From a virus (taxonomy: Duplodnaviria; Caudoviricetes): 32,960 nt of DNA. Shown piece by piece: positions 14,020-32,960 of this stretch. Location of the stretch: positions 1 to 32,960 of IMG/VR virus record IMGVR_UViG_3300038675_000799. One strand, written 5' to 3'. How positions within the stretch are numbered: position 1 is the stretch's first letter; each line of letters starts with the position of its first letter. Made by a program: the position numbers and the translations under genes. The notes beneath the pieces are model-generated. The model searched no databases. It was given only the letters and a program-made list of their open reading frames with translations, and was not told where the DNA came from.

Positions 14020-14028
14020 GAGGAACGG

Positions 14029-15552: not shown

Positions 15553-15713
15553 GTCGGAAATCCCCAACCGCCGCCTTTGGCCCCAGGATCGTTTCTAAGG
15601 GGGGCTTCTCCGGACCCGATCACACGCGCGTCCGGACCCCCTTCAGCCGTTTTGCAACGGCTTTGCAATGGGTCAAATCGGCATACGAATCGGAAGGGAC
15701 GGAATCGGCATGA
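15549..15713 (+). CDS. Possible 54-aa bridging ORF (MSRKSPTAAF...)
   Basis: GGAGG upstream; ATGA overlaps with both the portal stop and the protease start. Confidence 0.35.
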   Translation: MSRKSPTAAFGPRIVSKGGFSGPDHTRVRTPFSRFATALQWVKSAYESEGTESA

Positions 15714-16813: not shown

Positions 16814-16843
16814 AAACCAAACCCCGAAAGGAAAACAGAACCC

Positions 16844-17368
16844 ATGAACCCGATCCTGATTCTCATGGCGGCACTGATCGTGTCGGCCATTGCCGCGCTG
16901 CTTTGGCGCAGCTCGCGGCCGACGACCCTGTCGATCGCCAACGACGCCCCCGGCGGCACCCGCCCGACCGGGCGCATCACGAAGACGATTGCCTCCGGCA
17001 ACACCATCCTCGAAGGCATGCTGCTCAAGCTCGTCTCCGGCGAGGTCGCCATCTGCGGGGCCAATGACGTGCCCTTCGGCGTGGCCGAAGACGATGGCGC
17101 CGCTGGCGACATCATCTCCGTGGCCATCCTGGGCGCGGCGACCGGAACGGTGCGTATGATCGCCTCTGAGGCCATCACCGCGCCGGCCATCCTGGTACCG
17201 ACCGCCAACGGAGAAGTCGCGGCGCTCGCCGCCGACGCCTCGCTCGTCAGCGAGACGCGCTACCACATCGTCGGCCACGCGGTCGAGGATGGCACCGAGG
17301 ACGAGACCTTCGAGGTCGCGCCCACCTTCGCGATCTACAACTACACCGAGGACACGGTTTCCACCTAG
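16844..17368 (+). CDS. Capsid decoration/cement protein (DUF2190-like) with N-terminal hydrophobic leader
   Basis: PFGVAEDDGAAGDIISVAILG...IVGHAVEDG; lies between scaffold and capsid genes. Confidence 0.75.
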   Translation: MNPILILMAALIVSAIAALLWRSSRPTTLSIANDAPGGTRPTGRITKTIASGNTILEGMLLKLVSGEVAICGANDVPFGVAEDDGAAGDIISVAILGAATGTVRMIASEAITAPAILVPTANGEVAALAADASLVSETRYHIVGHAVEDGTEDETFEVAPTFAIYNYTEDTVST

Positions 17369-17396
17369 TCCGCAACCCAAGAAAGAACACCCGACC

Positions 17397-18407
17397 ATGA
17401 AAATGGACAACATCTTCATCCTTGGCGCGAGCCAGGACATCCCGGTCGGCCGCATCGCGGTCGCCAACGAGACGCGCTCCGACAGCGCGACTCTCATCGA
17501 AGCGCTGACGGCCTATGCCGCCGGCTACAAGGACCCCGAGAACCTCGACGAAGTGCTGGAGTTCTTCGCTCCGGCGGTCCCCGTTTCCCGCCGGTTCGAG
17601 TACCGGGTCCATGGCGCGTTCGACGATCTCTACTCCGAAGACGCGGACGGCGACGTCCGGGCCATCGGGGCGGACTTCAAGGTCATCCGGACCAAGGGCT
17701 CGCTCGTGCAGGCCAAGACCGCCAACAAGGGCCTGACCGAAGCCATCGACCTCGACGAGATCGAGGACGATGTCGAAGGCCAGAAGCAGCTGAAGGTCGC
17801 GCGCCTCAAGCGCATCCTGGTCCGCACCGAGCTGATGCGCGCCATCGCGCTGCACCTCATCGCCGCGGGCGCCGCGAAGCAGAAGAACTGGGCCTCCACC
17901 GGCGACAAGACCGACCCGGACAGCGATGTCCTGGCGGCCATCGACGCCGTGCGCACCAGCGCCAATGGCGGGTTCTGCAACCGGGTGTCCTACACCGACA
18001 GCGCCTGGACGCGCCGCGTCCTGGGCCTGCGGGCGCTCAACACTCCCGGCGGTTATGCCAGCTCGGGGATGACTCCCGAGCAGGTCGCCGCCTTCCTTGG
18101 CGTCCAGGGCGTCAAGCGCTGCGAAGGCGTGTACTACAACAAGGCCGCCGATACCAAGCGCAGTGGGATCGGCAAGGCCAGCACCGCCGGCTATCTCGGC
18201 CGTGTGCTGGGCTTCTATGGCCAGTCCGGCATCAGCAAGGACGACATGAGCACCCTCAAGCGCTTCATTTCGGGCACCATCGACGGGTCCGCCTGGCGCG
18301 TCTATGAGGACCAGAAGAGCGCGAAGATCCTCCACCTGACTGTTGAGCACAACTCGCTCATCGCCACCACGCTGGCCGGCAGCAACTTCTCCCTGGAGGT
18401 GAAGTAG
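17397..18407 (+). CDS. Major capsid protein (336 aa)
   Basis: Size and position; LTAYAAGY...FFAPAVPV N-terminal pattern; strongly GC3-biased codons; followed by a hairpin. Confidence 0.8.
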   Translation: MKMDNIFILGASQDIPVGRIAVANETRSDSATLIEALTAYAAGYKDPENLDEVLEFFAPAVPVSRRFEYRVHGAFDDLYSEDADGDVRAIGADFKVIRTKGSLVQAKTANKGLTEAIDLDEIEDDVEGQKQLKVARLKRILVRTELMRAIALHLIAAGAAKQKNWASTGDKTDPDSDVLAAIDAVRTSANGGFCNRVSYTDSAWTRRVLGLRALNTPGGYASSGMTPEQVAAFLGVQGVKRCEGVYYNKAADTKRSGIGKASTAGYLGRVLGFYGQSGISKDDMSTLKRFISGTIDGSAWRVYEDQKSAKILHLTVEHNSLIATTLAGSNFSLEVK

Positions 18408-18423
18408 CTGATTGGCTGATGCC

Positions 18424-18457
18424 AGCCGGGGGCGGCCGAGCCGCCGCCCCCGGCTTT
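18424..18457 (+). terminator. Hairpin after the capsid gene (partial terminator or mRNA stabiliser)
   Basis: 12-bp perfect stem AGCCGGGGGCGG / CCGCCCCCGGCT with a short T tail. Confidence 0.6.
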
Positions 18458-18473
18458 ACCCGAGGAAAAAACC

Positions 18474-18920
18474 ATGGCCTGGAAAACCCTAGACGAAACA
18501 AGCGTTCTGAGCCGCCTGACGGATGCCGAGGTGTCCGCCCTGAAGACGGCCGCGACGCGCGCCGGCCAGCCCGACACCATCGCCGAAATCATCGGCCAGG
18601 TCGTCCAGGATTGGCGCGGTCTGCTGCGCCGTCACCATGTCCTGGCCGAAGGCTCCACCATTCCCTCCGAGATCGAGAGCCACGTCCTGGCCGAGATCCG
18701 CTACCGCCTGTTCACTCGCCTGCCCGGCATGAAGTCCCTCCTGGACGAGCGCCGCGTCGAAGAGTGGACCGAGGCCAACCGCACCAAGGGCCGACTCAAA
18801 AACTACGTCTTCGAGGACGCCATCGCCGCCGAGGCCACCGCCGCCATGCCCCAGGCCGGCATCGAGCTGACCAAGAGCGACAACCGAATTTTCACCCGCG
18901 AAAAACTCGCCGGACTTTAA
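18474..18920 (+). CDS. Head-tail connector (Mu gp36/DUF1320-like)
   Basis: 148 aa after the capsid gene; helical; IPSEIESHVLAEIRYRLFTR...RR; C-terminal FTREKLAGL. Confidence 0.75.
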   Translation: MAWKTLDETSVLSRLTDAEVSALKTAATRAGQPDTIAEIIGQVVQDWRGLLRRHHVLAEGSTIPSEIESHVLAEIRYRLFTRLPGMKSLLDERRVEEWTEANRTKGRLKNYVFEDAIAAEATAAMPQAGIELTKSDNRIFTREKLAGL

Positions 18921-18923
18921 CCC

Positions 18924-19763
18924 ATGACCCCCGGAGAATCCATCCTCGCCAAGGCCCTGATGCCCACCACGGCATCCAGCGCCGAGATCCGCGCCACCGT
19001 CGCCGCGCAGATCCGGGAGCGGTCGTTGTTCTCCGCCCGCACGCCCTCCGCCCGCTATCTCGCCAAGCTCCAGGAGATTCTCGCCCAGGTCGCGGACGGC
19101 CGAATGAACCAGGCCGCCGCCCGCAGCGCCCTGCGCGAGTTCGGCCGCGCCATCGGCTACACCCCAGAGGGCGGCTTCCCCGGCGAGGCCGCCACGCCCC
19201 CGGCCGAGGCCGGCGGCCTGCGCGATCTGCTCTCTCCCCGCCGCCTGCGCTTGGTGCTGGACACCAACCGCAAGCTCGGCAGCAGCGCCCGGCAGCAGAT
19301 GGACGGCGGCAGCGACTACGCCCTCTATGCCTATCCCGCCTGGAGCCTGGAGCGCCGCGCCAGCCGCCGCGCCCCTCGGATCGATTGGGCCGAGCGCTGG
19401 CGCGCCGCCGGCGAGGCCGTCGCCTGGCAGGGCGCCGCCAAGGGCACGTCCGGCGTGTTCGGCGGCGTCCGCATGGTTGCCCTCAAGAACTCGCCGATCT
19501 GGCAGGCCATCGGCGACGGCGCAGGCGGCTTCACCGACACCCTCGGCGTCGCCATGCCCCCGTTCGCCTACGGCTCCGGGTTGGGCTGGGTGCCCGTCAA
19601 GCGCGACGAGGCCGAAGCCCTTGGCCTGCTGCGCGACGGAGATCCCGGCGCCGCCGCCATGGACCTTTCGCCCACCCAGAAGGAGTGGGACGGCTTTTTC
19701 GACGCGCTGGGCGAAGGCGGCGTCGCCGATCTCGTCCGCAAGCTGGGAGGCTCCGCCGCATGA
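18924..19763 (+). CDS. Mu F (gp30)-like head morphogenesis protein
   Basis: RSLFSAR...RRLRLVLDTN...YPAW...PPFAYGSG. Confidence 0.75.
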   Translation: MTPGESILAKALMPTTASSAEIRATVAAQIRERSLFSARTPSARYLAKLQEILAQVADGRMNQAAARSALREFGRAIGYTPEGGFPGEAATPPAEAGGLRDLLSPRRLRLVLDTNRKLGSSARQQMDGGSDYALYAYPAWSLERRASRRAPRIDWAERWRAAGEAVAWQGAAKGTSGVFGGVRMVALKNSPIWQAIGDGAGGFTDTLGVAMPPFAYGSGLGWVPVKRDEAEALGLLRDGDPGAAAMDLSPTQKEWDGFFDALGEGGVADLVRKLGGSAA

Positions 19764-20383
19764 TCGCCCTCGAAACCACCGTCGATCTTGGCCAGTACGG
19801 CGTCACCGCCGCCGCGCTGCGCAACCTGTTTTCCCCCGCCGGCAGCCGCGAGATCAACGACTCCGCCGCCACCGAGGTCGCCGAGCTGGTCCGCAAGCAC
19901 ATCGCCGACTACGCCCGCACCGCCCACACCACCGCCGACACCATCGAGGGCGGACCCGCCACGCGCACCGGCCATCTGGAATGGCCCAACACCGATGTCG
20001 TCAAGGGCGACGTCACCGCCGAAGAGGCCACCGTTGAAATCGCCTCCCCCGGTTTTCGCCGCGCGCTCGGCCCGCTGCGCATCGTGCCGAAAACCAAGCC
20101 CAAGCTCACCGTCCCCGTCCACGCCATGACCTACGGCCGCACCGTCGCCGATCTCGTCGCCGATGGCGTCAGGGTCTTCCGCCCCCGCGGCCGCGACTTT
20201 CTCGCCACCACCAAGAAAACCGCCGATGGCGCAGCCCTCATCGTGCTCTACGCCCTCAAGGACGAAGTCACCCTCCGGCACCAGCCCGATCTGCTGCCCA
20301 AGGACCAGGCGTTCAAGGACTCCGCCCGCGACGGCGTGTTGAACCTGCTGCGCGCCAAGCTCGCCAGAAGGAGCGCCGCATGA
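19760..20383 (+). CDS. Virion morphogenesis / tail completion protein (Mu G-like)
   Basis: GGAGG RBS before ATG 19760; IVPKTKPKLTVPV...LYALKDEVT...LLP. Confidence 0.65.
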   Translation: MIALETTVDLGQYGVTAAALRNLFSPAGSREINDSAATEVAELVRKHIADYARTAHTTADTIEGGPATRTGHLEWPNTDVVKGDVTAEEATVEIASPGFRRALGPLRIVPKTKPKLTVPVHAMTYGRTVADLVADGVRVFRPRGRDFLATTKKTADGAALIVLYALKDEVTLRHQPDLLPKDQAFKDSARDGVLNLLRAKLARRSAA

Positions 20384-20823
20384 CGCCCGACCCCAACATC
20401 GACTTCATCACCGAGGGCGAGAAGCGCGTCCAGGCCGAGCTGCTATCCGGCAACTGGTTCCAGGGCGTCACCGTGCTCACCAACGCGAACGGCGACCTGG
20501 AGGCTTCTATCGACACAGCCCTGGCGGAACTCGGGCTCTTTGCCATCGTCCGCGTCTACGACGGGAAAATCCCGGAGCAGGGGACCTCCGAGCCCTGGGC
20601 CTGCGAAATTGTCGTCACCGAAAACGCCCTATTGAACCGCGGCAAAGGCAGCACCGGCAAGACCGCCCGCATGATGGTCCAGAAGATCATCGCCGCCCGC
20701 ACCGTCGCCGTCCACTTGGAGACCGCCAGGGAAATGCCGTCCGGCAGCCATGTCGTCTGGCAACTCAAAGGAACCGTCGAAGTCGCAATGGCCGGGGACC
20801 CGGCCACCACCACCACTGGATAA
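20380..20823 (+). CDS. Putative tail terminator protein
   Basis: 147 aa immediately before the tail tube gene; ATGA coupling. Confidence 0.5.
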   Translation: MTPDPNIDFITEGEKRVQAELLSGNWFQGVTVLTNANGDLEASIDTALAELGLFAIVRVYDGKIPEQGTSEPWACEIVVTENALLNRGKGSTGKTARMMVQKIIAARTVAVHLETAREMPSGSHVVWQLKGTVEVAMAGDPATTTTG

Positions 20824-20847
20824 CGCGAAGAAAGGAACGCAGCAGCC

Positions 20848-21810
20848 ATGGCAAGAACACGCGGATTGACCCTCAAAGGGCCGGCCATCATCACCCGGAA
20901 CAGCCTCGTTTACCGCACGGTCGGCGGAATCAAGATCAACCTCTCCCTGGGGACGTTCGAGATCCAGTCCGACGAAGCGCCCGTCATCGACGAGCGCCTC
21001 CAGAACATCCCCATTGAGATCGAGTTCACCCCGGTCGGCATCGTCACCGAGGCCATTCTCGGCGCGCTTTATGCGCCGCTGTCCATGGCGGTCGGCACCA
21101 GCCTGTTTGGCGAAACGGACATCCCGGCCGTCATCACGCCCCTCACGGGCAAGGAGCCGGTCACCTTCCATTGCACCGGCTTCACCGCCATGCCGGACAT
21201 CATCTGGTCCGCAACCAAGACCATGCTCGGCCCCTGCAAGCTCACCGCCATCCTCGCCAACGGCAAGGAGTGGAACGATCTCGCCGCGCGCATGACGGTT
21301 GGCGATGACGTGACCGCCCCGACGCTGGCCGAGATCGATCCCGCCACCATTCCGACGCACCCCGCCCGCGTCCGCTACGGCGAGGAGTCGCCCTGGGACG
21401 AGCTCGGCAACCGCTCCGGCGTCGTCGCCAGCTTCGCCCTCCAGGCCGACCCGGACGAGGAGGACGAGATGGGCGTCTTCGATTACATCCACGCCGGCGT
21501 GAAGGTCAACGTCAAGCTCAACCCGGTCGGCGTGAACGTCGCCCAAGTCCTCGCCGAAGTGCAGCTCCAGGGCGAAGGCGTCCGCCGCGGCATGTCCCTG
21601 GCATCCCGCGCCAAGGAGCTTGTTGTCGAGAGCGCCTACGCCGGCGGCATCGACCTGGAGATCCCCAAGGCGGTCCTCAAGCCCGGACAGATCATCTACG
21701 GCCGCGGGCAGGAGCGCTTCGGCGACATGGACTTCGCCGCCCTCCAGACCACCGGCGTCCCCGCCACCGTATCCATCCACGCCGACGAAGACACCAGCGG
21801 CAGCACCTGA
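20848..21810 (+). CDS. Putative major tail tube protein (320 aa)
   Basis: Position; beta-rich with two similar halves (IEIEFTPVGI / VNVKLNPVGV); no sheath gene seen. Confidence 0.65.
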   Translation: MARTRGLTLKGPAIITRNSLVYRTVGGIKINLSLGTFEIQSDEAPVIDERLQNIPIEIEFTPVGIVTEAILGALYAPLSMAVGTSLFGETDIPAVITPLTGKEPVTFHCTGFTAMPDIIWSATKTMLGPCKLTAILANGKEWNDLAARMTVGDDVTAPTLAEIDPATIPTHPARVRYGEESPWDELGNRSGVVASFALQADPDEEDEMGVFDYIHAGVKVNVKLNPVGVNVAQVLAEVQLQGEGVRRGMSLASRAKELVVESAYAGGIDLEIPKAVLKPGQIIYGRGQERFGDMDFAALQTTGVPATVSIHADEDTSGST

Positions 21811-21830
21811 TCCGCTGGCAGGAGGCAACG

Positions 21831-22808
21831 ATGGCCACCAAGATCACACTTCGGCCCGAGGGCGCCACCGACAGCAGCCAAGATGTGCCGCTGGCGGACG
21901 GCGCGGACCGCTCTGCGGACAACGTCCGCGGGCCGGCGTCCGGAACGGTCAACGTGGCCATCGGCGTGCAGCAGTTCAACGCCATCCGCGCGGAGAGTGC
22001 GAGTTTCTTCCCGCGCGGCAATCGGGCGGGAACCTACACGTTCGAGGCTTCCCGCCGTTTCGCCGCCATGGCCGACGCCGGCCGGTTTATGCTGACCCAC
22101 GGCATGACCGTCCCGGCGGCCGGGACGCTCATATTCGACTTTGGCGACACATCTGCCACGCCGACGCCTGGGAAGTATGTCGTGCTCTTTGGCTGCGCGA
22201 TTCGCCAGGTCGGCCTGCCGCGCCGCGTCGGCGTCCACATCGTGACGTCGTACACTGTTAATTTTTCCTCGGCCGCCGAGGTGGATGTGGAGGATCTGGC
22301 AGACGAGATCGAGACGCGCACGCCGAAAGGGATTGTGCAGCCCTCCACCATCAAAACCAACTGTGGCGGCACGTCGCTCAAGGGCACCGAGTGGACGGCC
22401 GACGACAACTACAACGCCGGCACCGTGGCGGGGGGGGCGTCCGACGAGGTGGAGCTGGCCGATGGCACACCGGCGGCGGTCTATGCGCGGTGGCGCGAGG
22501 GGGCAGAGGTGGTATACGAGATCGATCTGCCCGCCGGCGCCTATGACGTGCGCCTCCATTTCGTCGAGCTGGAGGAGGAGGCCGCCGCCGCCCGCGTCTT
22601 TGACATCACCGTCAACGAGTCCCTGGAGTTCGAGGATTTCGACATCTATGACCAGGTCGGCGCGGCCAAGGCCCTCGTCGCCGGCGTGGATGGTGTCGAA
22701 GTCACCGACACGCTGACCATCACGCTCACCGCCACCACCGGACTCGCACTGATCTGCGGGATCGAAGTGGTCCCCCACGCGGAATTTGAACTGCCGGAGG
22801 AAACATGA
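21831..22808 (+). CDS. Tail protein with C-terminal malectin carbohydrate-binding domain
   Basis: NCGG...WTADDNY...YEIDLPAGAYDVRLHFVEL...RVFDITVN...DFDIYDQVG...ALICGIEV. Confidence 0.85.
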   Translation: MATKITLRPEGATDSSQDVPLADGADRSADNVRGPASGTVNVAIGVQQFNAIRAESASFFPRGNRAGTYTFEASRRFAAMADAGRFMLTHGMTVPAAGTLIFDFGDTSATPTPGKYVVLFGCAIRQVGLPRRVGVHIVTSYTVNFSSAAEVDVEDLADEIETRTPKGIVQPSTIKTNCGGTSLKGTEWTADDNYNAGTVAGGASDEVELADGTPAAVYARWREGAEVVYEIDLPAGAYDVRLHFVELEEEAAAARVFDITVNESLEFEDFDIYDQVGAAKALVAGVDGVEVTDTLTITLTATTGLALICGIEVVPHAEFELPEET

Positions 22809-25800
22809 AACGCCTTTGCACAGCCCTTGCCCTGGCCTTGCTGGCCGGCTGCACCCCCGCCCTTGCCCAGGATCTCAACGTCCGCCAGTTCGACCGCACG
22901 GTGGACCCGCGTAACGTCACCACCACGGACAAGCTCACTTGGTACGCGGGAGAAAGCATCGAATACATCATCCGCAGCCGCCGCGGCCGCGAGGTTGTCG
23001 ACGTGCCGCCGGAGAGCACGGTGGTCTGGCGCGTGCGCCAAGACACCAACGACTACCTCGTGGCTGCCGGCGAGGTCGTCACCAACGGCACCGTGCGGTT
23101 CGCCGTCTCGGCCCCCGCCGCCAACCTCCCGGCTGGTGCTTATACATCCTGGGCGCAAGCCTACCAGGGCACCAACCTGGTCGGCGTCCTCGACCGCACC
23201 AGCGTCGAGGTCAAATGGCGTCCTGGCGACGACTACGCCATCGTGCCCCCGATCACCAACCTCTTTGACCAGGTCCTCGCCGCATGGAACACCGAATGCT
23301 CCGCCGCCCTGGCCGCCGCCTTGGCCGCCGTCGCCGGCGTCGAGAGCAACGTCACGGCCCTCGCCGAGACCGTCGGCGGCATCACCGCCGAAAGCCTCGG
23401 GGCGCTGACAGCCGAAACCGACCCCGCCTGGACCGCGGCATCGGGCTCCGTTGTCTATGCGACGACGCCCGGCTACACCGCCGCCGTCGAGCAGGCCGCC
23501 TCCGCCTATGGCTGGGGCGATCACTCCGCCGCCGGCTACCTCACAGAGGAGACCGACACCGCGGCCCTGTCCGCCGTCGCTGCCGTCAGCGGACGCGTTG
23601 ACACGGTGGAGGGCTGGGGCGATCACTCCGCCGCTGGCTACCTCACAGAGGAGACAGACGCCGCCGCGCTGTCCGCCATCGCCGCCGTCTCCGGCCGCGT
23701 GGACACGGTCGAGGGCTGGGGCGACCACGCGGAGGCGGGGTACCTGACCGCGGAGGCCGACGCCGCGGCGCTGGGTGTTATCGGCTCGGCCACCAACGCG
23801 CTTCTCGACCTCGCGGGGGCGCGGGCGATGACGGGGAATCTGAACATGGCTGACGGCAATATCACGAATGTAAACAACATCGACGTTGCCACGCTTTCGG
23901 AAGCCGGTTCTTTGTCTGGGATAGACATCGCGGATTCAGAGTTTACGGGACAGTGGAACTTTGCCGATCAACTGACCGTTCGCGGCTCGAAAATTCTGCT
24001 GGAATCTACGCTGATACAGCCGAGCTGGGTCACCTCATCCGCCGCGTACACTAACCCTATTTCCCTGCCACACCTGTTTACCACAAACCTCAGCTTTGTG
24101 GACACGGTCCCTCTGCCGGAGAGCGCCACCAGAGTCTTTATCACCACGACAAACGACGAGTCGCGCTCAAGCGGAAATCTGCGCCTGATGATTGGTGATG
24201 TCGAGCTGGCTTCCTATATGCCGGAGTGCGACGGCTCTACCCATCAACTGGACTTCTCGCAGGCACTCGTCCCCACTGGATCAAGCATCCGCGTTGTGTT
24301 TATGGAGTTGCCGAGCGCGTCTGGCGTTACCTCCGCACCGCCATCTATCACTGACATGCAAGTGTGGACAATGGCTGACCCGGCGCAGGTGGGACGGAGA
24401 TTGGACACAGCCAACTCAATCTATGAGGGAGATGATCCGTTATATCCTCGGCAATGGCTCAACCTCCGAAGCGGGGAGGCCCTGGCCGCCGCCGCCCTCG
24501 CCGCGGCGAACGCCGAAACTCACTACCGCACCGCGCCGACCGACCTACAGGGCCAGCCCGTCAGGTGGAATCCGCGCTTCGACACCGTCGCGGCCAGCAA
24601 CAGCCTGTCCACGCTTTATGGCGGATCGACCGCCCTGCGGCTGGACGGAGAGGGCGCGGCCGTCGTGCCGGAAATCCGGGCGTTCGCGGTCGAGTCCGGG
24701 GAAGTCGCCACGCTGACGGTGTGGAGCTATAGCGGCGGAGCGACCAATCTGGTGCCGGAAGTGACGACCAACCTTATAACGGGGATTTGGGAGCGTAAGC
24801 CTGAAAGCATCGTTTCGGCGACGAACATCGACGCCTTTACCGCGCAGGTCGTCTTCACTAACGATTTCGAGCGTCTTCTCTACGTGCGGCTGGTGGACGT
24901 TTCAGGCGGTACCGGCGTGCCGGTTCTCCGGGTGTTCGGCGGCATCGCGTTCGGCGACGGCGAGGCGATCACCGACTGGCCCCAAGGCACGATCCTCGGC
25001 GCGACGATCAACGGGCCGCATACCGTCGCCACCAACGACGGCATCCTTGAGTTCACCGTGGCCTCGGGCGGCGCCGGCTGGACGAACCTAGCCTTTTCCG
25101 GCACCGGCAACGCCATCACGGGTGCGACGGCGGCGGCGGACACGCTTACGCTGCAGCGCGGCGAAATTGAGGGCGGCACCCCCACCACCAACGCGCTTCT
25201 CGACCTCGCCGGGACGCGGGCGATGACGGGGCCGCTGAATATGAATAGCAACGCAATAACAAAAGTGTCCTATGTCACAGGAGATACCGGTAAGGGGCTG
25301 TTCTTCGACGATAACTCCCTTGATTTCTGGGATAGTTCGGCAATTTTCAACGCAGACGGCACCAACGTCTGGCAAGGCCGCGTGAACGACACCGAAGCCT
25401 CGCGCATCGCCGCGCTGGCCGAGGGTGCAGGCGGCGGCAACCTCATCGCCACCAACACGCCTACGGCTGGGCAAATGCTCTACGCTTCCGGGACAGACAA
25501 CTCCACGCTCTACTGGGCAGCGGCACCGGAAGGCAGCACCGGCACCGCCAGCGTAGGCGTCGAGGGCGATGTCCTGACGTACCCATTCGCTACCAACATC
25601 GCCCTGCTGGCCAGCACAAACCTCTGGCCCCAGCGAATCCTGGAAGTGACGAACGACTTCACTTTGCAAGTCCCGACGATGGCCGACACCAACGCTGCCG
25701 GAATCATCTGGCTGACCGTCCCGTCAATTAGCACCCACACCGCCACGATCCCAACCAGTTCCCCGGCAATCCTTGGCTATGTCCCCAGCCTGTCAACAAA

Positions 25801-25870
25801 CGCGGAGTCCGAGTTGCTTTTCCGTTGGACTCCGCAGGCCACCGGCTGGCGGATGTGGAGGTTCCGCTGA
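22805..25870 (+). CDS. Tail fibre/adhesin-like protein (1021 aa) with signal peptide/lipobox
   Basis: MKRLCTALALALLAGCTPALAQD; BppU-like N-terminal region; YLTxETD fibre-type repeats; two LDLAGxRAMTGxLNM repeats. Confidence 0.75.
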   Translation: MKRLCTALALALLAGCTPALAQDLNVRQFDRTVDPRNVTTTDKLTWYAGESIEYIIRSRRGREVVDVPPESTVVWRVRQDTNDYLVAAGEVVTNGTVRFAVSAPAANLPAGAYTSWAQAYQGTNLVGVLDRTSVEVKWRPGDDYAIVPPITNLFDQVLAAWNTECSAALAAALAAVAGVESNVTALAETVGGITAESLGALTAETDPAWTAASGSVVYATTPGYTAAVEQAASAYGWGDHSAAGYLTEETDTAALSAVAAVSGRVDTVEGWGDHSAAGYLTEETDAAALSAIAAVSGRVDTVEGWGDHAEAGYLTAEADAAALGVIGSATNALLDLAGARAMTGNLNMADGNITNVNNIDVATLSEAGSLSGIDIADSEFTGQWNFADQLTVRGSKILLESTLIQPSWVTSSAAYTNPISLPHLFTTNLSFVDTVPLPESATRVFITTTNDESRSSGNLRLMIGDVELASYMPECDGSTHQLDFSQALVPTGSSIRVVFMELPSASGVTSAPPSITDMQVWTMADPAQVGRRLDTANSIYEGDDPLYPRQWLNLRSGEALAAAALAAANAETHYRTAPTDLQGQPVRWNPRFDTVAASNSLSTLYGGSTALRLDGEGAAVVPEIRAFAVESGEVATLTVWSYSGGATNLVPEVTTNLITGIWERKPESIVSATNIDAFTAQVVFTNDFERLLYVRLVDVSGGTGVPVLRVFGGIAFGDGEAITDWPQGTILGATINGPHTVATNDGILEFTVASGGAGWTNLAFSGTGNAITGATAAADTLTLQRGEIEGGTPTTNALLDLAGTRAMTGPLNMNSNAITKVSYVTGDTGKGLFFDDNSLDFWDSSAIFNADGTNVWQGRVNDTEASRIAALAEGAGGGNLIATNTPTAGQMLYASGTDNSTLYWAAAPEGSTGTASVGVEGDVLTYPFATNIALLASTNLWPQRILEVTNDFTLQVPTMADTNAAGIIWLTVPSISTHTATIPTSSPAILGYVPSLSTNAESELLFRWTPQATGWRMWRFR
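23510..23773 (+). repeat. About 2.6 tandem copies of a 102-bp (34-aa) repeat, GWGDHSAAGYLTEETD...
   Basis: GGCTGGGGCGA units start at 23510, 23612 and 23714. Confidence 0.95.
23790..25231 (+). repeat. 47-bp direct repeat pair (23790-23836 and 25185-25231), 2 mismatches, in frame
   Basis: CCACCAACGCGCTTCTCGACCTCGCsGGGrCGCGGGCGATGACGGGG; copies 1395 bp apart. Confidence 0.9.
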
Positions 25871-26655
25871 TGCGCGTTGCGGCATCCATTCTTTTCCTGC
25901 TGACCGCCACGGCTGCGCTTGCGCTGGACCCACGAGCTGCGCTCCTGCTGGATGGCATGCCGAGCGCGGATGGGCTCATGGCCGAATATCAGGTTTTTGA
26001 TAATGCTGATGACACCTGTTGCGCGGCGCATGCCACTCTCGGCAACGGTGCGACGGCGCACTCCCGCCGCCTGTGGTTCGACGGCGCGGACGATTACGCT
26101 CGCACGGCCAGCAACGATGCGCTCAACGTGACTACAAAGCTAACCGTCATGGCGTGGATTTACCCGACGAATATCACCGGCAAGACTACCGGCGGGAGCG
26201 GCCAGGCAGTCGCGTCGCGCTACGACACCGCAGGGAACAACCGATCGTGGGAGTTGGCGGTATCTCTTATCGCAACCCCCTTTATTGCAGGAGGCGTGGC
26301 GGTCCAATTCGGCTCGCCATCCACCGGATTATATACCGGCCGCGTCGGAATTCGCCCAGGACTCACCTATTCTGACAAGCGTTTCCCCGGCATCCTCAAT
26401 AACGACACCTGGTATCACGTCGCGTTCACCTACGATTCCGGGACGGTGCTGATCTACGTCAACGGGGTAGAGTACGCGCCGGAGGGTTACGGGACAATTC
26501 CAACCGGCCTCCGCACGTCATCCCTGCCGCTGACAATCGGAAATGTTCATGGCAACGAACATGGGTTCATCGGCGGAATTGGCCCTGTAAAGATTTACCG
26601 CCGCGTCGCAACCGATGAAATCATGAGAGACTTTTTGAGAGGACCGCCGCAATGA
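25870..26655 (+). CDS. LamG/concanavalin A-like lectin domain protein with signal peptide
   Basis: MRVAASILFLLTATAALALD; LWFDGADDY, LTVMAWIYP, WYHVAFTYD, IYVNG, LTIG and FIGGIGPVKIYRR. Confidence 0.88.
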   Translation: MRVAASILFLLTATAALALDPRAALLLDGMPSADGLMAEYQVFDNADDTCCAAHATLGNGATAHSRRLWFDGADDYARTASNDALNVTTKLTVMAWIYPTNITGKTTGGSGQAVASRYDTAGNNRSWELAVSLIATPFIAGGVAVQFGSPSTGLYTGRVGIRPGLTYSDKRFPGILNNDTWYHVAFTYDSGTVLIYVNGVEYAPEGYGTIPTGLRTSSLPLTIGNVHGNEHGFIGGIGPVKIYRRVATDEIMRDFLRGPPQ

Positions 26656-27164
26656 AAAAACTCGCAACGCTATTGATTCTTGCCGCCGCCGCCGCCGCCG
26701 CCAGCGCCTCGCCAATGCTGGCCCCGGACGGCGCCTACCACGCCGCCCCGCCGTCGCGCCTTGAAACGCCGGATGGTGTCGCCACCATCGGGAACCCGGA
26801 CGCGCTGCTTGCCTACGGATGGGCTTACGCCAGCCCCGAGCGCATCGCGGCGGAAGAAGCCGCGCAAGCAGCCGCGCAGGCCGAGGCCGAGGCCGCCGCG
26901 AGCCTGCCGCTCCAATCGGCAACCGGGTTCGCCGTCCAAGACAGCGACGGCCACTGGATTGAGCTTGAGCCAACCGGCGACGGCCTGCCGGTCATCGGGG
27001 TCCGGGTTTCCAACTCCCCCCTCACGCCGGAGGAACGCGCTGCCATGAAAGCGGAGAGAAAGACCGCACACGACGCGCTCAAAGCGGCGTCGCAGGACAA
27101 GAAACTGAACGATAAGGCCAAGGTCGCCCTGTTGATGAAGGCTGTCTTTGGTGTGGAGGAATAA
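26652..27164 (+). CDS. Exported hypothetical protein (170 aa)
   Basis: Signal peptide MKKLATLLILAAAAAAASA; GAGGA RBS; ATGA overlap. Confidence 0.8.
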   Translation: MKKLATLLILAAAAAAASASPMLAPDGAYHAAPPSRLETPDGVATIGNPDALLAYGWAYASPERIAAEEAAQAAAQAEAEAAASLPLQSATGFAVQDSDGHWIELEPTGDGLPVIGVRVSNSPLTPEERAAMKAERKTAHDALKAASQDKKLNDKAKVALLMKAVFGVEE

Positions 27165-27166
27165 CC

Positions 27167-27277
27167 ATGTTGCGCGGCGGCGAGAAAACAACCAACCGGC
27201 GAGCCAACGCTTGTCGGAATCATTCGGTCGTATTCTTCCACTACGTCGCCGCGCTTTTTGAAAGGAACCGGACATGA
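27167..27277 (+). CDS. Possible 36-aa bridging/leader ORF (MLRGGEKTT...)
   Basis: GGAGGAATAACC-ATG; its stop overlaps the next start (ATGA). Confidence 0.35.
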   Translation: MLRGGEKTTNRRANACRNHSVVFFHYVAALFERNRT

Positions 27278-27693
27278 AATACGCTCAAATCTTCGCAATC
27301 GGAACCATCCTCGCTGTTCTCTGCGCCCTCGGAGGAATGGGCTGCTCCAACCTCGGCGGCCTCGGCCGCGCGGCCTCCGGCCTCGCCGGCCTGGTCGCCC
27401 CCGAGCACAAGGCCACAGCAGACAACCTCTACGCGCTCCTCCGCGACGACCAGCTCGCCTCGTCACTCGACGTCGAGGTGGCCCTGGAGGACAAGGAGGG
27501 GCGGATCTACCGCAAGGGCGACCTCACGCCTGTGGTTTTGACCTCCCGCCGCGCCTACACCTGGGACAGCCTGCCCGCCGGCGCCTGGGACAGGTTCCTC
27601 GGTGCCGCGCCGGACCGCTCCGGCGTGGCCGCCCAGCGCAAGGCCCTCGCCGACGCCCTCGCCGCCGTCCCGTCCACGCCATCCAAAAAGTGA
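27274..27693 (+). CDS. Putative lipoprotein (139 aa)
   Basis: Hydrophobic leader ending GMG-C-SN; AAGGA RBS. Confidence 0.7.
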   Translation: MKYAQIFAIGTILAVLCALGGMGCSNLGGLGRAASGLAGLVAPEHKATADNLYALLRDDQLASSLDVEVALEDKEGRIYRKGDLTPVVLTSRRAYTWDSLPAGAWDRFLGAAPDRSGVAAQRKALADALAAVPSTPSKK

Positions 27694-28499
27694 ACTCCGT
27701 TTCCACCAAGACCGGCGCGGACTATCAGCGCTTTGAGGATCGCCTGCCCACGCTCCGCCTGACCGACGCGGAGATCCTGGCGCTCCAGACCACGGCCCTC
27801 CGGATCCTGGACTCCGGCGAGATCCGCTGGAATCACCTGGAGGATGCCCTGGGCGAGGTCTTCGGCCCGGACGCCATCCCCGGACTGATCGACGCCCTCC
27901 GCAACCGCACCCCCGTCGCCGCCTGGTCCCGCCGCGACACCGTCCGCCTCATCGCCGCCCTCTATCCTTATATACCAGGCGAGACGGAGGGCAAAAAGGC
28001 TGCCTGGGTGGTGGACCAGGCGCAGCCGTGCTTCGACGCCGACCGGTGGGATGCAGAGATCTTCCCCTTTGTCCTCCAACGCATCGAGGAGTACCGCGCC
28101 GCCGGCGGAACCCTCGACCGCTGGCCCGACGTCGTCGAGCCGCCAGAGCCAGCCGCGCCACGGACTCTCACCGGCGCCGAGCGGGGGTTCCTTTGGAAGC
28201 CCCTGGGCGACCACGCGGACATCGTCCGCGTCCTTCTGCCGCCAGAATACACCGGGCTGGTGGACCGTGGCAGCGTCGAGATCTGGCACGCGGGGCAGCT
28301 CGTCGAGAGGCTGCGATCGACCGGCGTTGCCAACGGCGGCCGCGAGCACTTCGCCGGGGCGAAACCCGGCGGCGCCTACAACGCCTGCAGCCAGGTCCGC
28401 GCCACCGCCCAAGGCGTCACCTTTGTGTGGGTCATCAGCTCGCCTGGATCGCGCAACGAGGACGTCGTCGCGACGGTCCTTGGGGAGCCAGCCACATGA
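27690..28499 (+). CDS. Hypothetical protein (about 269 aa; start uncertain)
   Basis: GTG 27690 overlaps the upstream stop; two domains joined by PPEPAAP. Confidence 0.65.
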   Translation: MNSVSTKTGADYQRFEDRLPTLRLTDAEILALQTTALRILDSGEIRWNHLEDALGEVFGPDAIPGLIDALRNRTPVAAWSRRDTVRLIAALYPYIPGETEGKKAAWVVDQAQPCFDADRWDAEIFPFVLQRIEEYRAAGGTLDRWPDVVEPPEPAAPRTLTGAERGFLWKPLGDHADIVRVLLPPEYTGLVDRGSVEIWHAGQLVERLRSTGVANGGREHFAGAKPGGAYNACSQVRATAQGVTFVWVISSPGSRNEDVVATVLGEPAT

Positions 28500-29140
28500 G
28501 CGCCGTCGCCCCCATTGCAGCCGCCGTCGCCAAGGTCCTCGCCAAGGCCGCCTGGAAGCTCGTCCGAATGTGGGCGCACAAAAAGGCCCGCGTCCGCGGT
28601 GAGTGGCTCGGGCGCTGGAAAAGCGTTACGCCTGCCGACCCTGCCGCCGCCGTCCAGGCAGGCTACAACGCGGACACGCCCACGCGGCTCATCATCAACG
28701 ATCCCATCGACCCGCGGCGCTGGCGGCATGAGTCCGGCGCCGAGTACATGCCGGACACCCCCGGCATCACGGACGGCGGCTCTACGCCGCCCCTCGCCCG
28801 CGACGCAGTCAAAAAGTGGGCGGACCTCGATCCCTTCGGCACCTTCGTGGATGCTTTCTTTTTCCATGACGCGGCCTACCGCGACGCCGGCTGCTGGGTC
28901 CGCCTGCCCAAGGCCGAGGCCGCCAAGCATGGCCTCTCCATCCCCAAGGGCTCTGACATCTCGGAGTGGACCTGGATGCCCCTGACCCGCGCCATGGCCG
29001 ACACCCTTCTCTTCCAGCAGATGCCGAGCCTCGGCGGACGCAACGGCGAGGTCCAGGCCATCTTCCGCGCCGTCCGAGTCGGCGCCGCCCGAGCCTGGCG
29101 CAACCACCGCCGCCGCGCCGCAAACAGGAGCGAAGTCTGA
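28496..29140 (+). CDS. DUF1353-family protein
   Basis: ITDGGSTP, AFFFHDAAY and RAMADTLL...AIFRAVRVGA. Confidence 0.75.
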   Translation: MSAVAPIAAAVAKVLAKAAWKLVRMWAHKKARVRGEWLGRWKSVTPADPAAAVQAGYNADTPTRLIINDPIDPRRWRHESGAEYMPDTPGITDGGSTPPLARDAVKKWADLDPFGTFVDAFFFHDAAYRDAGCWVRLPKAEAAKHGLSIPKGSDISEWTWMPLTRAMADTLLFQQMPSLGGRNGEVQAIFRAVRVGAARAWRNHRRRAANRSEV

Positions 29141-30966
29141 TGGCTAACGACATCGATGTCAAAATCGGCATAACCACAAAGGGCGACGCCTCCGGTGCTC
29201 AGGCCGTTGACAAGGCCCTCGACGAGGTCAAGCAGTCTGCCCAGGAGGCCGCCGCCGCCGCCGGCGACGCCGCCGCCCAGGCCGCCGACAAGGCCGCCCA
29301 GGCAGCCGATAAGGCCACCACAGAGGTCAAGGAGCTGGCCGCCGAAATGGCCAAGGACCCAGGCACCGGCGGCCTCTCCGACGCTATCGGCGACCTGGAC
29401 GCTAAAATAACCAGCCTTTCCGACGAGAAGAAAAAGGCCGGTGTCGCCGGGCTGTCGCGGGCGCTGGAGGGGCTTGCACGAGGCGACATCGCTACGGGGG
29501 TTGGGGGGGCTGCGGAGGCGCTCTTCCAAATGGCGCAGGCAATCCCCAATCCGGGCGCAGCCATTGGGCTATCGCTCGCCGGAATTGCGATCTCCGGCGT
29601 TCTTAAAGCAATCCGGAGTGATGCTTCAGATACCGCCGAGACGTTTAGAAATGAGTTCGGCGAGACCCTGGACGAGGAGATGGCGCGCCTGGAAGCGTGG
29701 TCGCAGGTGGAGATGGAGTGGGCCGGTGTAAAGGCGGCCAACGAAAACATCATCAAGGATTTTTCCTCGGTGGTTGCGGCCGCGGCTGCGACGCAGCAGG
29801 CGATCGAGATGATTTTCACGGCGAACATCGGCTCCAAGGTGGCGGGGCTGGAACGGGAAAAGCAGCAGGCCGTTGAGTCAGGAGACAAGGAGAAGGCCGC
29901 TGAGATCGATCGCCAGGTGGACCAATTGCGGCAGTATGAGGAGCTGGTCAAGCTCAACACCAGCATCGCAGAAGAAAAGGCTAAGCTCGAAGAGCTGAAG
30001 GTCAAAATCGAGGAGCAGGCGGCGGCCGCGAGGAAAACGGCCGAAGAGGCCGAGGCCGGCAAGCAAGAGCTGATCGACCTTAAGGAGAAAATCACTGCGC
30101 TATGGGGCAACTCAGACGCCACGCGTCCGGGCTCATCCGCGCACACCGAGCTCATTAATAGTTTGCAATCCAAAGCGGATTACGCGGGCGAAGAGGCTTC
30201 CAGACTTGCCCGGATCAAGGGCTACGAGGACGTAGCCGCCGCCCGCCGTCTAGAGGAGGATTCCCTCCGCAAGCTCGCGACTGAAATCTCTGGACTCTCG
30301 GATAAAATTGATCTTGTAGCGGACCAGGAGACCACCCTGGCTAAGACCCGCGAGGAATCCAACGAGGCCGCAAAAAAATCGCAGCAGGAGTACACCGCGG
30401 TTAAGGCTCAAATCGAAGCTCTGGAGATCCAGCTCAAGGATCTCGCTTCGGCCGCCGGTCCGGATGTCGCCGGCCAGGCTGCCGAGCAGGCTGCCTACAT
30501 GACCGAGGCGACGACAAAGATTCTCGAGGACATGGAAACCCTTGTCATCGAAGATGGCGAAAAAATCAAGCAGGCCGGCGAGGCGGCATTCAAGGGAGCT
30601 CAGGAGGCGGCCGGGGATCTGGACGGAGCCCGCAAGGCTTATGAAACGTCCGCAACCCAAATGGGCGAGGCCATCGGGAAGATCGAAGAGGCGGCGGAGA
30701 AAATCGGCAACGAGGCCGAGGAGGGGGGGGATCAAATTAAGCAGGGCGCCCAGGAGTTTCGCACGAAGCTCGGAGAGGCCGCCGGCCTTTTCTCCCAGGC
30801 GGCCTTTGACCTAAATTCAACAGCTACCGGCGTCGCCCGCCAAGCCGCCGACCTCGCGGCCGAGCAGCGGCGCGTCGCCGCAGAGGTCGCTGTCCTGCGC
30901 CAGCAGACCTCCGCAGCACTCGCCGACTCGGCCATGGCGCTGGCTCAAATCCGCAACAGGGGTTAG
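29140..30966 (+). CDS. Tape measure-like protein (608 aa)
   Basis: MANDIDVKIGITTKGDASG N-terminus; long Ala/Glu-rich helical body with a short hydrophobic segment. Confidence 0.8.
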   Translation: MANDIDVKIGITTKGDASGAQAVDKALDEVKQSAQEAAAAAGDAAAQAADKAAQAADKATTEVKELAAEMAKDPGTGGLSDAIGDLDAKITSLSDEKKKAGVAGLSRALEGLARGDIATGVGGAAEALFQMAQAIPNPGAAIGLSLAGIAISGVLKAIRSDASDTAETFRNEFGETLDEEMARLEAWSQVEMEWAGVKAANENIIKDFSSVVAAAAATQQAIEMIFTANIGSKVAGLEREKQQAVESGDKEKAAEIDRQVDQLRQYEELVKLNTSIAEEKAKLEELKVKIEEQAAAARKTAEEAEAGKQELIDLKEKITALWGNSDATRPGSSAHTELINSLQSKADYAGEEASRLARIKGYEDVAAARRLEEDSLRKLATEISGLSDKIDLVADQETTLAKTREESNEAAKKSQQEYTAVKAQIEALEIQLKDLASAAGPDVAGQAAEQAAYMTEATTKILEDMETLVIEDGEKIKQAGEAAFKGAQEAAGDLDGARKAYETSATQMGEAIGKIEEAAEKIGNEAEEGGDQIKQGAQEFRTKLGEAAGLFSQAAFDLNSTATGVARQAADLAAEQRRVAAEVAVLRQQTSAALADSAMALAQIRNRG

Positions 30967-30968
30967 CC

Positions 30969-32780
30969 GTGCAGGAGTGGACCATCAACAACGTCTCCCT
31001 GGCCGACCTGGGCGTCGACTCTCTCCAGCTGCACCTCCAAAACCAGGACGACGACTACGTCGATATCCGGTTCCCCCGCAACTACGACGCCGCCCTCCCG
31101 GACGGATTCGACGTGGACGCTCCGCTCGTCGTTCGCTGCGGTTCAACCGTCGTCTTCCGCGGCGAGGTCGCCACCCCCTTGCAGTCCGCCTCCGCCTTCG
31201 CCGAATACCGCTCCGTTTTCGCCTACGGACCGTGGCATCGCTTCCGCGAGATGCCTTTCCTTTATATGTACCCCTACGTCACCGGCGCCGCCCTCTCGAC
31301 TCACGGCGTCCTCGGCGGCAACGCCTCGGACCTCCTTAACGCCATTCTCACCACCAATGCGGATGGCATCGTCCAGGTCGGCACCATCGATGTCGGCTCC
31401 CTGGCCATCCCCGAGACCGAGGTCTACGACCAGACCCTCGCACAGGCCCTCCAGGCCGTCCTTCGCTACATTGTTGGCGCCGTCGTCGCCTTCGACTACT
31501 CCACCGCGCCCCCCACAGTCCACATCGTCGCCGACAACTCTACCTCCCTCACCTCCGTCCCCATCGACATTAACGACGGCCTCAACTCCGCCTTCAACCT
31601 CTCCCCCCTCTACGCCCGCCTGATTTCCGGCGTCACCCTCCAATACGAGGCGACCGGCCAGGTGCAGACTGGAGTGCTTGAATTTAAGCAATCTTACGAT
31701 GTGCCTGTGACCGATGACACGATCGATACGCCGTCGCAATGGTCTGGGTTCTTCATCCTCGGGAGCGATTCCGCCGGCGACGCCGCCTCGCGACGCCATT
31801 TCCGCCGGACGATCCGGCTGGAGGGCGCATACGATATTTCATCGTATGTGTGGCACGGGCAGGTGTGGCCCTACTGGCCCCTGGAACAGGCGCCGAACTC
31901 CTCGGGCAAACAGTTTACTCTCGATACTCTCCTGAGCGTCACAACCCAGAGTGGCTATACCGCTAAAAACCTCCGCATCTACATCGACCGCGCATGTTAT
32001 TTCACGAAGTTCTGGTCGTGGGCCAGCAACGCCAATATGTCGTTCAATTTTGGTGGTCACACGGGCGCACAGCAGGCCAATGTCGGAGGCTTCACCAACT
32101 TTGACTCCGCTCTGCCAGGCGGCACCGGCTTGGAGTGGCTGTCTGCGGGGGGGGGCGATGTCTACTCGTCGCTCAAATATCTCCGGCCCCTCATGCGGAC
32201 AGGCTTGCCTTATACTTCGAGGTCCCAGCCGATTACCCTGACCGGACACCCTTATTTAATCACACATCTCTGGGGGCCGAGCTCTCCGGTGAACAATCTC
32301 GACCACTTCTTCCAAACCGAAGAACTTCCCGGCGCTCGTGTGGCGGCATTCGGGTGCAGATGGGATTCATCCGGCGGAACTATCCGAAACTGGACTCCCG
32401 ATGGTACAGTCTACCGTATTCCATTCGTCGACGACCGAACTGTTGGCGCAATTAACAGCTCAACCGGCCGCTTCGACCACGTCAAAACGGTCGATAACTC
32501 CTCCGCCGTTCTACCCGAGGCCGGCATCGCCGCCCAGCTTCTCGCCGCCAACAACCGGCTGCTTTATGAGGGCCGCCTGACCCGCCTCCTCGACGACCCC
32601 TCCGACTTCGCCGGCCTGAACCGGAAGGTCCTGTTCACCAACCTGGCCGTAAGCGCCCTGGTACAGCGCCTCTCCTACGACACCGCCACCGGCCTGGCCG
32701 ACCTCACCTTCGGCGCCCCCACCCACCTCGGCCCTCAAGATCTCATCGCCCTCCAGCGCGCCGGCAAGTCCCCTGCATAG
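30969..32780 (+). CDS. Tail tip/hub-like protein (603 aa)
   Basis: Follows the TMP; VVFRGEV N-terminal hub-like pattern; C-terminal ADLTFGAPTHL. Confidence 0.65.
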   Translation: MQEWTINNVSLADLGVDSLQLHLQNQDDDYVDIRFPRNYDAALPDGFDVDAPLVVRCGSTVVFRGEVATPLQSASAFAEYRSVFAYGPWHRFREMPFLYMYPYVTGAALSTHGVLGGNASDLLNAILTTNADGIVQVGTIDVGSLAIPETEVYDQTLAQALQAVLRYIVGAVVAFDYSTAPPTVHIVADNSTSLTSVPIDINDGLNSAFNLSPLYARLISGVTLQYEATGQVQTGVLEFKQSYDVPVTDDTIDTPSQWSGFFILGSDSAGDAASRRHFRRTIRLEGAYDISSYVWHGQVWPYWPLEQAPNSSGKQFTLDTLLSVTTQSGYTAKNLRIYIDRACYFTKFWSWASNANMSFNFGGHTGAQQANVGGFTNFDSALPGGTGLEWLSAGGGDVYSSLKYLRPLMRTGLPYTSRSQPITLTGHPYLITHLWGPSSPVNNLDHFFQTEELPGARVAAFGCRWDSSGGTIRNWTPDGTVYRIPFVDDRTVGAINSSTGRFDHVKTVDNSSAVLPEAGIAAQLLAANNRLLYEGRLTRLLDDPSDFAGLNRKVLFTNLAVSALVQRLSYDTATGLADLTFGAPTHLGPQDLIALQRAGKSPA

Positions 32781-32809
32781 CCTCCTGCAGCCAGCCTGCA
32801 ATCCGCCCA

Positions 32810-32857
32810 TTTTCCCAACTGCGTGATAACTTTTCCCAACTAGGGCGCGCGGATACA
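32810..32857 (-). repeat. Phage right end (attR) with transposase-binding repeats
   Basis: TTTTCCCAACT at 32810-32820 and 32831-32841. The minus strand reads TGTATCC... from 32857, similar to the TG...CA ends of Mu. Confidence 0.75.
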
Positions 32858-32960
32858 GGTCGACGTTCTGGATGCTGTTGAGGGCGAGGTTTTCGCGGGC
32901 GGCCGCGACGGAGGGGGGGAAGCTTTCGACGCCGATGACGCGGTCGGCGATGCCGGCGAG
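32858..32960 (-). CDS. Fragment of host 23S rRNA m5U methyltransferase (RlmD/TrmA family), interrupted by the phage end
   Basis: LAGIADRVIGVESFPPSVAAARENLALNSIQNVD matches the SAM-binding motif II region of this family; only 34 codons are visible. Confidence 0.65.

Follow-up and report, generated by a model that had tools for sequence, protein, structure and literature searches.

We analysed a 32,960-base virus record (IMGVR_UViG_3300038675_000799), called here the window, meaning the whole stretch of DNA; it holds most of a Mu-like transposable phage, and its left end lies inside a gene. In its late region, a tail-fibre-type protein of 1021 amino acids (aa) begins with a predicted secretion leader directly followed by a virion-anchor domain of the BppU-N type, and three further genes behind it also begin with predicted leaders. 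A preliminary description of this DNA had proposed that the receptor-binding apparatus is exported. Judged from the leaders and the anchor fold, export is the best reading, and we lean slightly toward maturation of the fibres in the periplasm and docking on particles at lysis. The parts are of known kinds; their predicted export in a phage is not described in the literature covered, and an excess of the dipeptide Thr-Asn is new here.

Four consecutive late genes begin with predicted export leaders

The genes and domains on which the analysis centres are the following.

22805..25870, plus strand: mosaic tail-fibre-type protein, 1021 aa, made up of leader, anchor, WGDH-type fibre repeats (about residues 198-320) and shared modules; PHROG 9729 and 22284
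22805..22867, plus strand: fibre leader, a predicted 21-residue Sec leader with an ALA/Q signal peptidase I site and a lipobox-like LAGC inside it
22868..23254, plus strand: BppU-N-type immunoglobulin-like anchor domain, residues 22-150; by AlphaFold 2 (AF2), Foldseek against PDB and BFVD, and VIA-align
25870..26655, plus strand: leader and LamG/concanavalin-A-like domain, 261 aa from ATG; Pfam PF13385 (Laminin_G_3), E 2e-18; the open reading frame finder lists an upstream TTG at 25825
26652..27164, plus strand: 170-aa exported-type protein; N-terminal half variable, C-terminal half conserved; leader in 80 of 83 homologues
27274..27693, plus strand: probable lipoprotein, 139 aa; non-canonical GMG-C box; no Pfam or PHROG family match

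All four open reading frames were found at these positions and pass a leader heuristic of hydropathy and charge at well-supported starts. As the preliminary description had reported, the block is mostly stop/start-coupled, the start codons of three of the four genes overlapping the preceding stop, and its tail-fibre-like and LamG identities are borne out by the PHROGs tail-fibre and Laminin_G_3 matches. Purine-rich sites resembling ribosome-binding sites precede the fibre, 170-aa and lipoprotein genes. For calibration, the heuristic was applied to 189 core virion and packaging proteins from related prophages and called a leader in 4 of them, or in 12 of 185 when alternative starts were allowed; at 6.5% each, the chance of four consecutive leaders is about 2e-5.

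A true start downstream of the leader, which would have removed the signal, finds no good candidate in the fibre gene. The next ATG comes only at codon 342, TTG12 falls within the leader, and a start at GTG33, which has no ribosome-binding-like site, would truncate the first predicted strand (residues 26-34). Internal ATGs do occur, at codons 22-37, in the genes for the LamG protein, the 170-aa protein and the lipoprotein.

Among 10 close homologues of the fibre, A21 is invariant and Q22 and C16 are nearly so. The lipobox that the preliminary description read in the leader stands for this close clade, where LAGC is common, and is not general beyond it: the pattern occurs in 17 of 124 leader-bearing homologues. 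On this count we rejected the lipobox as a family trait and read the family signal as one of the signal peptidase I type, although the close clade keeps the cysteine.

The leader is followed by a virion-anchor fold

Residues 22-150 were modelled by AF2 with a predicted local distance difference test score (pLDDT) of 88, and the BppU-type fold that the preliminary description had suggested looking for was found right behind the leader. The best Foldseek matches in the PDB were the 80alpha, TP901-1 and NF5 baseplates, and the best viral matches (BFVD) were BppU-domain proteins. VIA-align gave Z scores of 11.5 to 4v96 (TP901-1 BppU) and 10.8 to 3uh8; its top seven entries are all from phage baseplates, necks or tail tips (Z 8.9-11.5; root-mean-square deviation 2.5-3.0 A over 99-118 residues). 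In six of these seven solved structures the match begins at residue 1-4 of the chain, so those six chains have no leader. Identity of the domain to the solved structures is 6-11%. Pfam BppU_N (PF10651) does not match the window fibre protein; a leaderless homologue, P0252, aligns to it with E 1.4e-4 and 22 bits, the cut-off being 23.1. Modelling of the anchor domain in complex with two Dit-like domains gave a score of 0.00, which has no bearing either way.

Beyond the anchor, the PHROGs tail-fibre matches cover residues 198-286, and the fibre modules are common, in mosaic fashion, to other exported proteins. The last 110 residues have 83-86% identity to the tips of two proteins with different N-terminal domains. 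Sequence searches of solved structures with the fibre body returned nothing useful, and the S74 domain had no match in the window protein or in the scanned relatives.

The LamG protein is likely a fibre-tip adhesin and the 170-aa protein likely a fibre chaperone or accessory. At a related locus (L047), a leader-bearing LamG gene and a leader-bearing gene for 176 aa likewise lie 3' of the fibre gene. For the 170-aa protein, weak Atlas leads point to fibre-adjacent proteins of the XkdW/YomQ type (scores 0.81 and 0.78, under 0.9), and a PHROG comparison gave no convincing match among 44 members.

Leaders are conserved among anchor-domain homologues

We searched for homologues with a profile of the anchor domain without its leader, which found 228 proteins among 1.84 billion; the best 150 of the 228 were scored. 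A leader was called in 124 of these 150, or in 133 with longer N-regions counted. Most of the remaining 17 are, by our reading, truncated gene calls or heuristic misses, and two are internal or repeat matches; truly leaderless are P0241 and P0252. Conservation of the leaders, which the preliminary description had proposed to check, thus extends across the anchor-domain homologues as across those of the 170-aa protein.

The leaders vary in sequence, and what stays constant is a basic N-region, a hydrophobic core and a small-residue site at the domain boundary. A basic residue stands at positions 2-7 in 119 of the 124 leaders, and the small-residue site lies at the domain start in 62 of 62 anchorable cases, 24 of them with Gln at +1. 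On one 4.6-kb contig a Mu gp36 head-tail adaptor is fused in frame to a fibre homologue (P0021) with the leader internal, a read-through, an error or a real fusion.

The tail core is leaderless

Lineage counts were made on 42 loci from related genomes, some of which share a genome (G002, G086, G160, G200 and G206). They are approximate, gene-caller starts being sometimes wrong, as for the Dit-like genes of L044 and L047 and the fibres of L100, L103 and L125. The leaderless tail genes on either side of the block are as follows.

20848..21810, plus strand: probable major tail tube protein, no leader; name from its place 3' of a tail-terminator-like gene and from its conservation across 33 of the 401 genomes in the class of G001; no family match
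21831..22808, plus strand: Dit-like protein with C-terminal malectin domain, no leader; AF2 residues 1-160 pLDDT 90; Malectin E 2e-17; stop overlaps the fibre start
29140..32780, plus strand: probable tape-measure and hub genes, no leaders; names from position, composition and synteny with L046 and L047; no significant family match

Foldseek matches of the Dit-like protein are tail-tube and baseplate tube-fold proteins, and gene position suggests Dit rather than another member of this fold. Related Dit-like proteins are mostly 120-190 aa and without the lectin. Across the class of genome G001 (401 genomes), the tube gene was found in 33 genomes, the anchor domain in 17 and both in 13 (P 1e-12); the anchor domain is prophage-bound, not scattered through host chromosomes.

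Among 35 loci, the gene after the Dit-like gene encodes a leaderless adaptor of 200-230 aa in 11 and a BppU-type protein in 14, of which 11 have clear leaders and three have one by a longer N-region or a corrected start. The adaptor and BppU-type profiles match weakly by hhalign (E 1.7e-4, probability 50%, 94 columns); the iterated BppU profile left the adaptors unmatched, and sequence searches of solved structures with the Dit-like alignment and the adaptor gave nothing useful. A phylum-wide sample contained seven long proteins (603-1032 aa) headed by the adaptor domain and without a leader, so that the leaderless textbook state exists in relatives. Some reduced elements with host-like flanks (L240-L242, L244 and L246) encode portal, protease and capsid, then one long leaderless adaptor-headed protein; no tube gene was recognised near them.

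Long non-core proteins encoded between tube and hub have a leader in 21 of 25 cases. Throughout the lineage, predicted leaders separate the peripheral proteins, which bear them, from the core proteins, which do not. As predicted in the same way, the export trait is wider in relatives than the tail module. At four loci the fibre gene lies just 5' of the tail-terminator gene, in the neck region, adjoining the head-tail adaptor where seen. Further, the gene that follows the major capsid gene in L044 (2674-3057) and some 20 related loci encodes a beta-rich, Thr-Asn-rich protein of roughly 125 aa, and 16 of 16 clustered copies of this protein carry a leader; the window has no such gene. It is a candidate exported capsid decoration protein, and clusters from Verrucomicrobiota, Kiritimatiellota and phages are among its structure neighbours in the Atlas.

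Thr-Asn is over-represented in the leader-bearing anchor-domain proteins

The window fibre contains 23 Thr-Asn dipeptides against 5.6 expected, and none of 20,000 shuffles reached 23 (maximum 17). No dipeptide exceeds expectation as strongly as Thr-Asn in the exported anchor-domain proteins, where its observed/expected ratio is 3.2-3.4 and 35% of Asn follow Thr; the exported post-capsid protein has a ratio of 3.6. Core proteins have a ratio of 1.06, leaderless adaptors 0.86, Dit-like proteins 0.37 and 76 leaderless fibres 1.14. The seven long leaderless adaptor-headed proteins hold 12 Thr-Asn against 19 expected, and the leaderless family members P0241 and P0252 have 0.3-0.4 per 100 residues. 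A structural cause is disfavoured by the lack of excess in leaderless homologues and leaderless fibres. Thr-Asn thus tracks the leader rather than the fold, and this supports the view that the proteins do pass through the envelope.

Host proteins were compared on sampled DNA. In genome G001 the ratio is 2.04 in exported against 0.86 in other proteins (n = 74 and 201), and in G307 the contrast is weak (1.21 against 0.75). Classical N-glycosylation is not supported as the basis, N-x-S/T being unenriched (0.99-1.13) and no STT3-type transferase exceeding the cut-off in five hosts. The excess suggests selection for modification in the envelope, and as a hypothesis, by analogy, we read Thr-Asn as a likely site of such a modification, for instance glycosylation. 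Sequence-directed glycosylation exists in other bacteria.

Proposed assembly in two compartments and its alternatives

The reading to which we give slightly better than an even chance is assembly in two compartments. The parts without leaders, namely head, tube, distal tail and hub, would assemble in the cytoplasm, while the fibre, the lectin and the helper protein would be secreted through their leaders during late expression. In the periplasm the secreted parts would fold and possibly be modified, and once the inner membrane fails at lysis, the BppU-type domain would dock the fibres on finished particles. Such a scheme explains why the anchor fold is kept, why the gene has its place in the operon and alternates with a leaderless homologue, and why leaderless fibres are scarce. 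We infer cleavage, periplasmic folding, presence in the virion, the docking partner and the timing at lysis. Late docking is feasible, since the attachment of fibres and decoration proteins can be the final step and can take place even in lysates, as in T4 in vitro complementation. A wider version is tentative, and we hold it somewhat below an even chance: that the whole lineage finishes its virions outside the cytoplasm, with fibres, lectin tips, chaperone and the capsid-decoration-like protein being secreted, modified by an undescribed Thr-Asn-reading system of the host envelope and clipped on as the cell opens, which would give the particle a host-type coat.

Several points weigh against assembly in two compartments. 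The leader calls come from our own rule of hydropathy and charge, not from SignalP, and cleavage is therefore predicted. The lipobox-like Cys kept in the close clade could tether the fibre to the membrane, and the window's leaderless Dit-malectin protein and 603-aa hub could bind the receptor with no need of exported fibres. Neither the window nor the scanned genes of relatives, which give partial coverage, contain a recognised endolysin, so that lysis itself is not established. The Thr-Asn excess is absent from the window's LamG, 170-aa and lipoprotein genes. The closest host, G002, has no contrast (1.28 in 28 exported against 1.27 in 96 other proteins), the five hosts searched yielded no STT3-type enzyme above the cut-off, and the Thr-Asn-rich host proteins include pilin-like proteins and extracellular enzymes, which fits surface display equally well. 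The group has no match among 50,697 GenBank phages.

Surface display is the first alternative, and we consider it unlikely. The proteins would once have been fibres and would now sit on the host envelope or be released from it, acting as adhesins, in receptor masking or as decoys against related phages, as Bdellovibrio mosaic adhesive trimer (MAT) fibres are displayed, while the virion binds by the Dit-malectin protein and the hub. Exported phage-like fibres on bacterial surfaces have a precedent in the MAT fibres (PMC10769870), the fibre repeats are common to exported bacterial fibre-like proteins, Thr-Asn-rich host proteins include surface types, and the window has a leaderless sugar-binding Dit. 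Surface display leaves unexplained, however, the stop/start coupling within a late operon that has no separate promoter-like site in 20300-29300. Against it also stand the virion-anchor fold, kept in a slot where it alternates with a leaderless homologue, the small lectin-free Dit-like proteins of most relatives, and the occurrence of the anchor domain with prophage genes and not across host chromosomes. No autotransporter, type IX secretion system or PEP-CTERM domain was found among 103 scanned proteins.

A very unlikely alternative is early egress, in which particles would enter the periplasm or membrane vesicles before or without classical lysis, the lipoprotein and its neighbouring genes being egress machinery. 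It agrees weakly with the lack of a recognised endolysin in the window and the scanned G001 prophage genes, and with the lipoproteins and the lipase-, patatin-, subtilase- and permuted-papain-like genes in the late regions of relatives. Holin-like matches did occur, however, in 2 of 91 scanned proteins, the window is cut at its left and the relatives were scanned in part, and divergent lysins escape profiles. We know of no mechanism that moves a tailed particle across an intact membrane.

A shade less likely still is that the leaders do not export the virion form and serve as assembly tethers or lipoprotein anchors, or are bypassed by internal starts that yield cytoplasmic copies. The ATGs at codons 22-37 of the three small genes suit this better than does the fibre, which has no usable internal start ahead of its first strand. 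The lipobox-like Cys of the close clade and the in-frame gp36 fusion of P0021, with its internal leader, also agree with it; it is opposed by the retention of a basic N-region, hydrophobic core and boundary small-residue site in divergent leaders, and by a Thr-Asn excess that tracks the leader rather than the fold. Chance or a gene-calling artefact is highly improbable: Ala/Leu-rich starts are frequent in GC-rich DNA and the leader test is heuristic, but the rate of 4 in 189 core proteins against 124 of 150 anchor-domain and 80 of 83 170-aa homologues already contradicts it.

If assembly in two compartments is correct, it adds a periplasmic step to tailed-phage morphogenesis, gives phages access to envelope modification by the host and explains leaders that annotation pipelines ignore. 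The usual view is that particles of tailed phages are finished in the cytoplasm before the cell lyses, with export signals confined to lysis and moron proteins. The Thr-Asn excess gives a concrete way into what may be an unknown system of protein modification in these hosts. Should surface display prove true instead, prophages would be furnishing their hosts with shuffled surface fibres, a less surprising outcome but one still undescribed for this group in the literature covered. In the accessible texts of that literature (including PMC10769870, PMC3556154 and PMC6920513; subscription papers and supplements lay outside its scope), we found no description of exported tailed-phage fibres or of the Thr-Asn motif.

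Neighbouring genes and other features of the window

The preliminary description had counted the lipoprotein as part of the tail block, and in this it is probably wrong. The protein has no fibre-like domain and no Thr-Asn signal, 109 bases separate its gene from that of the 170-aa protein, and it is coupled instead to the next gene, the first of two uncharacterised ones:

27690..29140, plus strand: two uncharacterised genes, 269 aa and 214 aa, coupled behind the lipoprotein gene; no Pfam family

From the missing domain and signal and this coupling, the lipoprotein likely belongs to a lysis or envelope cassette and is probably ordinary; lipoproteins are ordinary in lysis cassettes, as with spanins. 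A homologue in L046 has 51% identity and an LCG-C box, and lipoprotein-like genes stand in the same position in L044 and L047. The 269-aa protein has a leader in 13 of 66 homologues, and a sequence search of solved structures with it returned nothing useful. Late regions of relatives carry DUF1353 genes, and subtilase, permuted-papain-like, serine hydrolase, patatin or GDSL lipase genes occur in those of L098, L099, L104-L107, L044, L047, L120, L136, L046, L103 and L126.

Transposase A and B, Gam, terminase, Mu-type portal, protease and head genes have Pfam or PHROG matches in the window, and no sheath gene was recognised there. Along 15710-18407 (plus strand), the protease, cement and major capsid proteins share short (L/I/V)-A-N-(E/D) motifs near their N-termini, as does the portal at its C-terminus; the prohead protease likely cleaves at these motifs. 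In the cement protein, as in L113, L120, L123 and L136, a hydrophobic N-terminal extension runs up to such a motif. Between the early and late regions, 10854-11129 (plus strand) encodes a leader-bearing 91-aa BLIP/DUF3862-like protein that resembles an ordinary exported moron. At the early-region end, a truncated glycosyltransferase-4-like gene (2-406, minus strand; Pfam E 5e-4, under the cut-off) is preceded by a DNA-polymerase-beta-like gene (403-888), the gene at which the G001 prophage stops. Past the hub gene, 32780-32960 holds the minus-strand end of a host-like gene without a Pfam match, which from a motif looks like an RNA methyltransferase gene of the host; the right prophage end may lie near 32860.

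The nearest named syntenic loci sit in metagenome-assembled genomes of Verrucomicrobiota, and the host class is probably Kiritimatiellia, as the Atlas cluster of a linked gene consists mainly of Kiritimatiellota. Matches to this prophage family also lie in G307 and G236, on contigs of 4.1 and 6.1 Mb. Of the region's words, 0.84-1.00 are shared by three bioreactor runs from a single study, one of which may be its source. Scans of viral contigs found no relative with the fibre as query and 43 loci with the terminase, their tails mostly unrelated. RNA-library contigs from four runs, picked by this region, fall on 12900-32800 mainly as fibre-gene fragments of related phages, and such contigs cannot rank expression.

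Comparison with known systems

The phage resembles Mu-like phages with non-contractile tails in its transposase A/B, Gam and Mu-type portal and protease, and in the lack of a recognised sheath gene. It differs from them in the leaders of its peripheral structural proteins, in having no recognised endolysin and in placing the fibre genes before the tape-measure gene.

Bdellovibrio MAT fibres (PMC10769870) have a signal peptide, a beta-rich domain of about 130 aa, a mosaic phage-like fibre and varied tips; they are encoded on the chromosome and displayed at the cell surface, and an S74 domain forms the end of 13 of 21. The window fibre has the same order of leader, beta-rich domain of about 130 aa and mosaic fibre. 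Unlike what is reported there, the window genes stand in a phage late operon and the fibre has a virion-anchor fold and no S74 match. A profile of 13 exported bacterial fibres that we judged MAT-like, used as stand-ins, aligned over the leader only (probability 5%).

The closest likeness is to the N-terminal immunoglobulin-like fold of TP901-1 BppU (ORF48; 4v96, 3uh8), also present in 80alpha (6v8i), NF5 (9m8o), the Sf14 neck (9c39), Douge (8zdo) and the T5 tail tip (7qg9). As with BppU-type proteins, the window fibre gene adjoins the Dit-like gene, and in relatives the fibre genes adjoin a Dit-like or neck gene. Unlike in those proteins, which are typically made in the cytoplasm without a leader, the window domain stands behind a predicted secretion leader.

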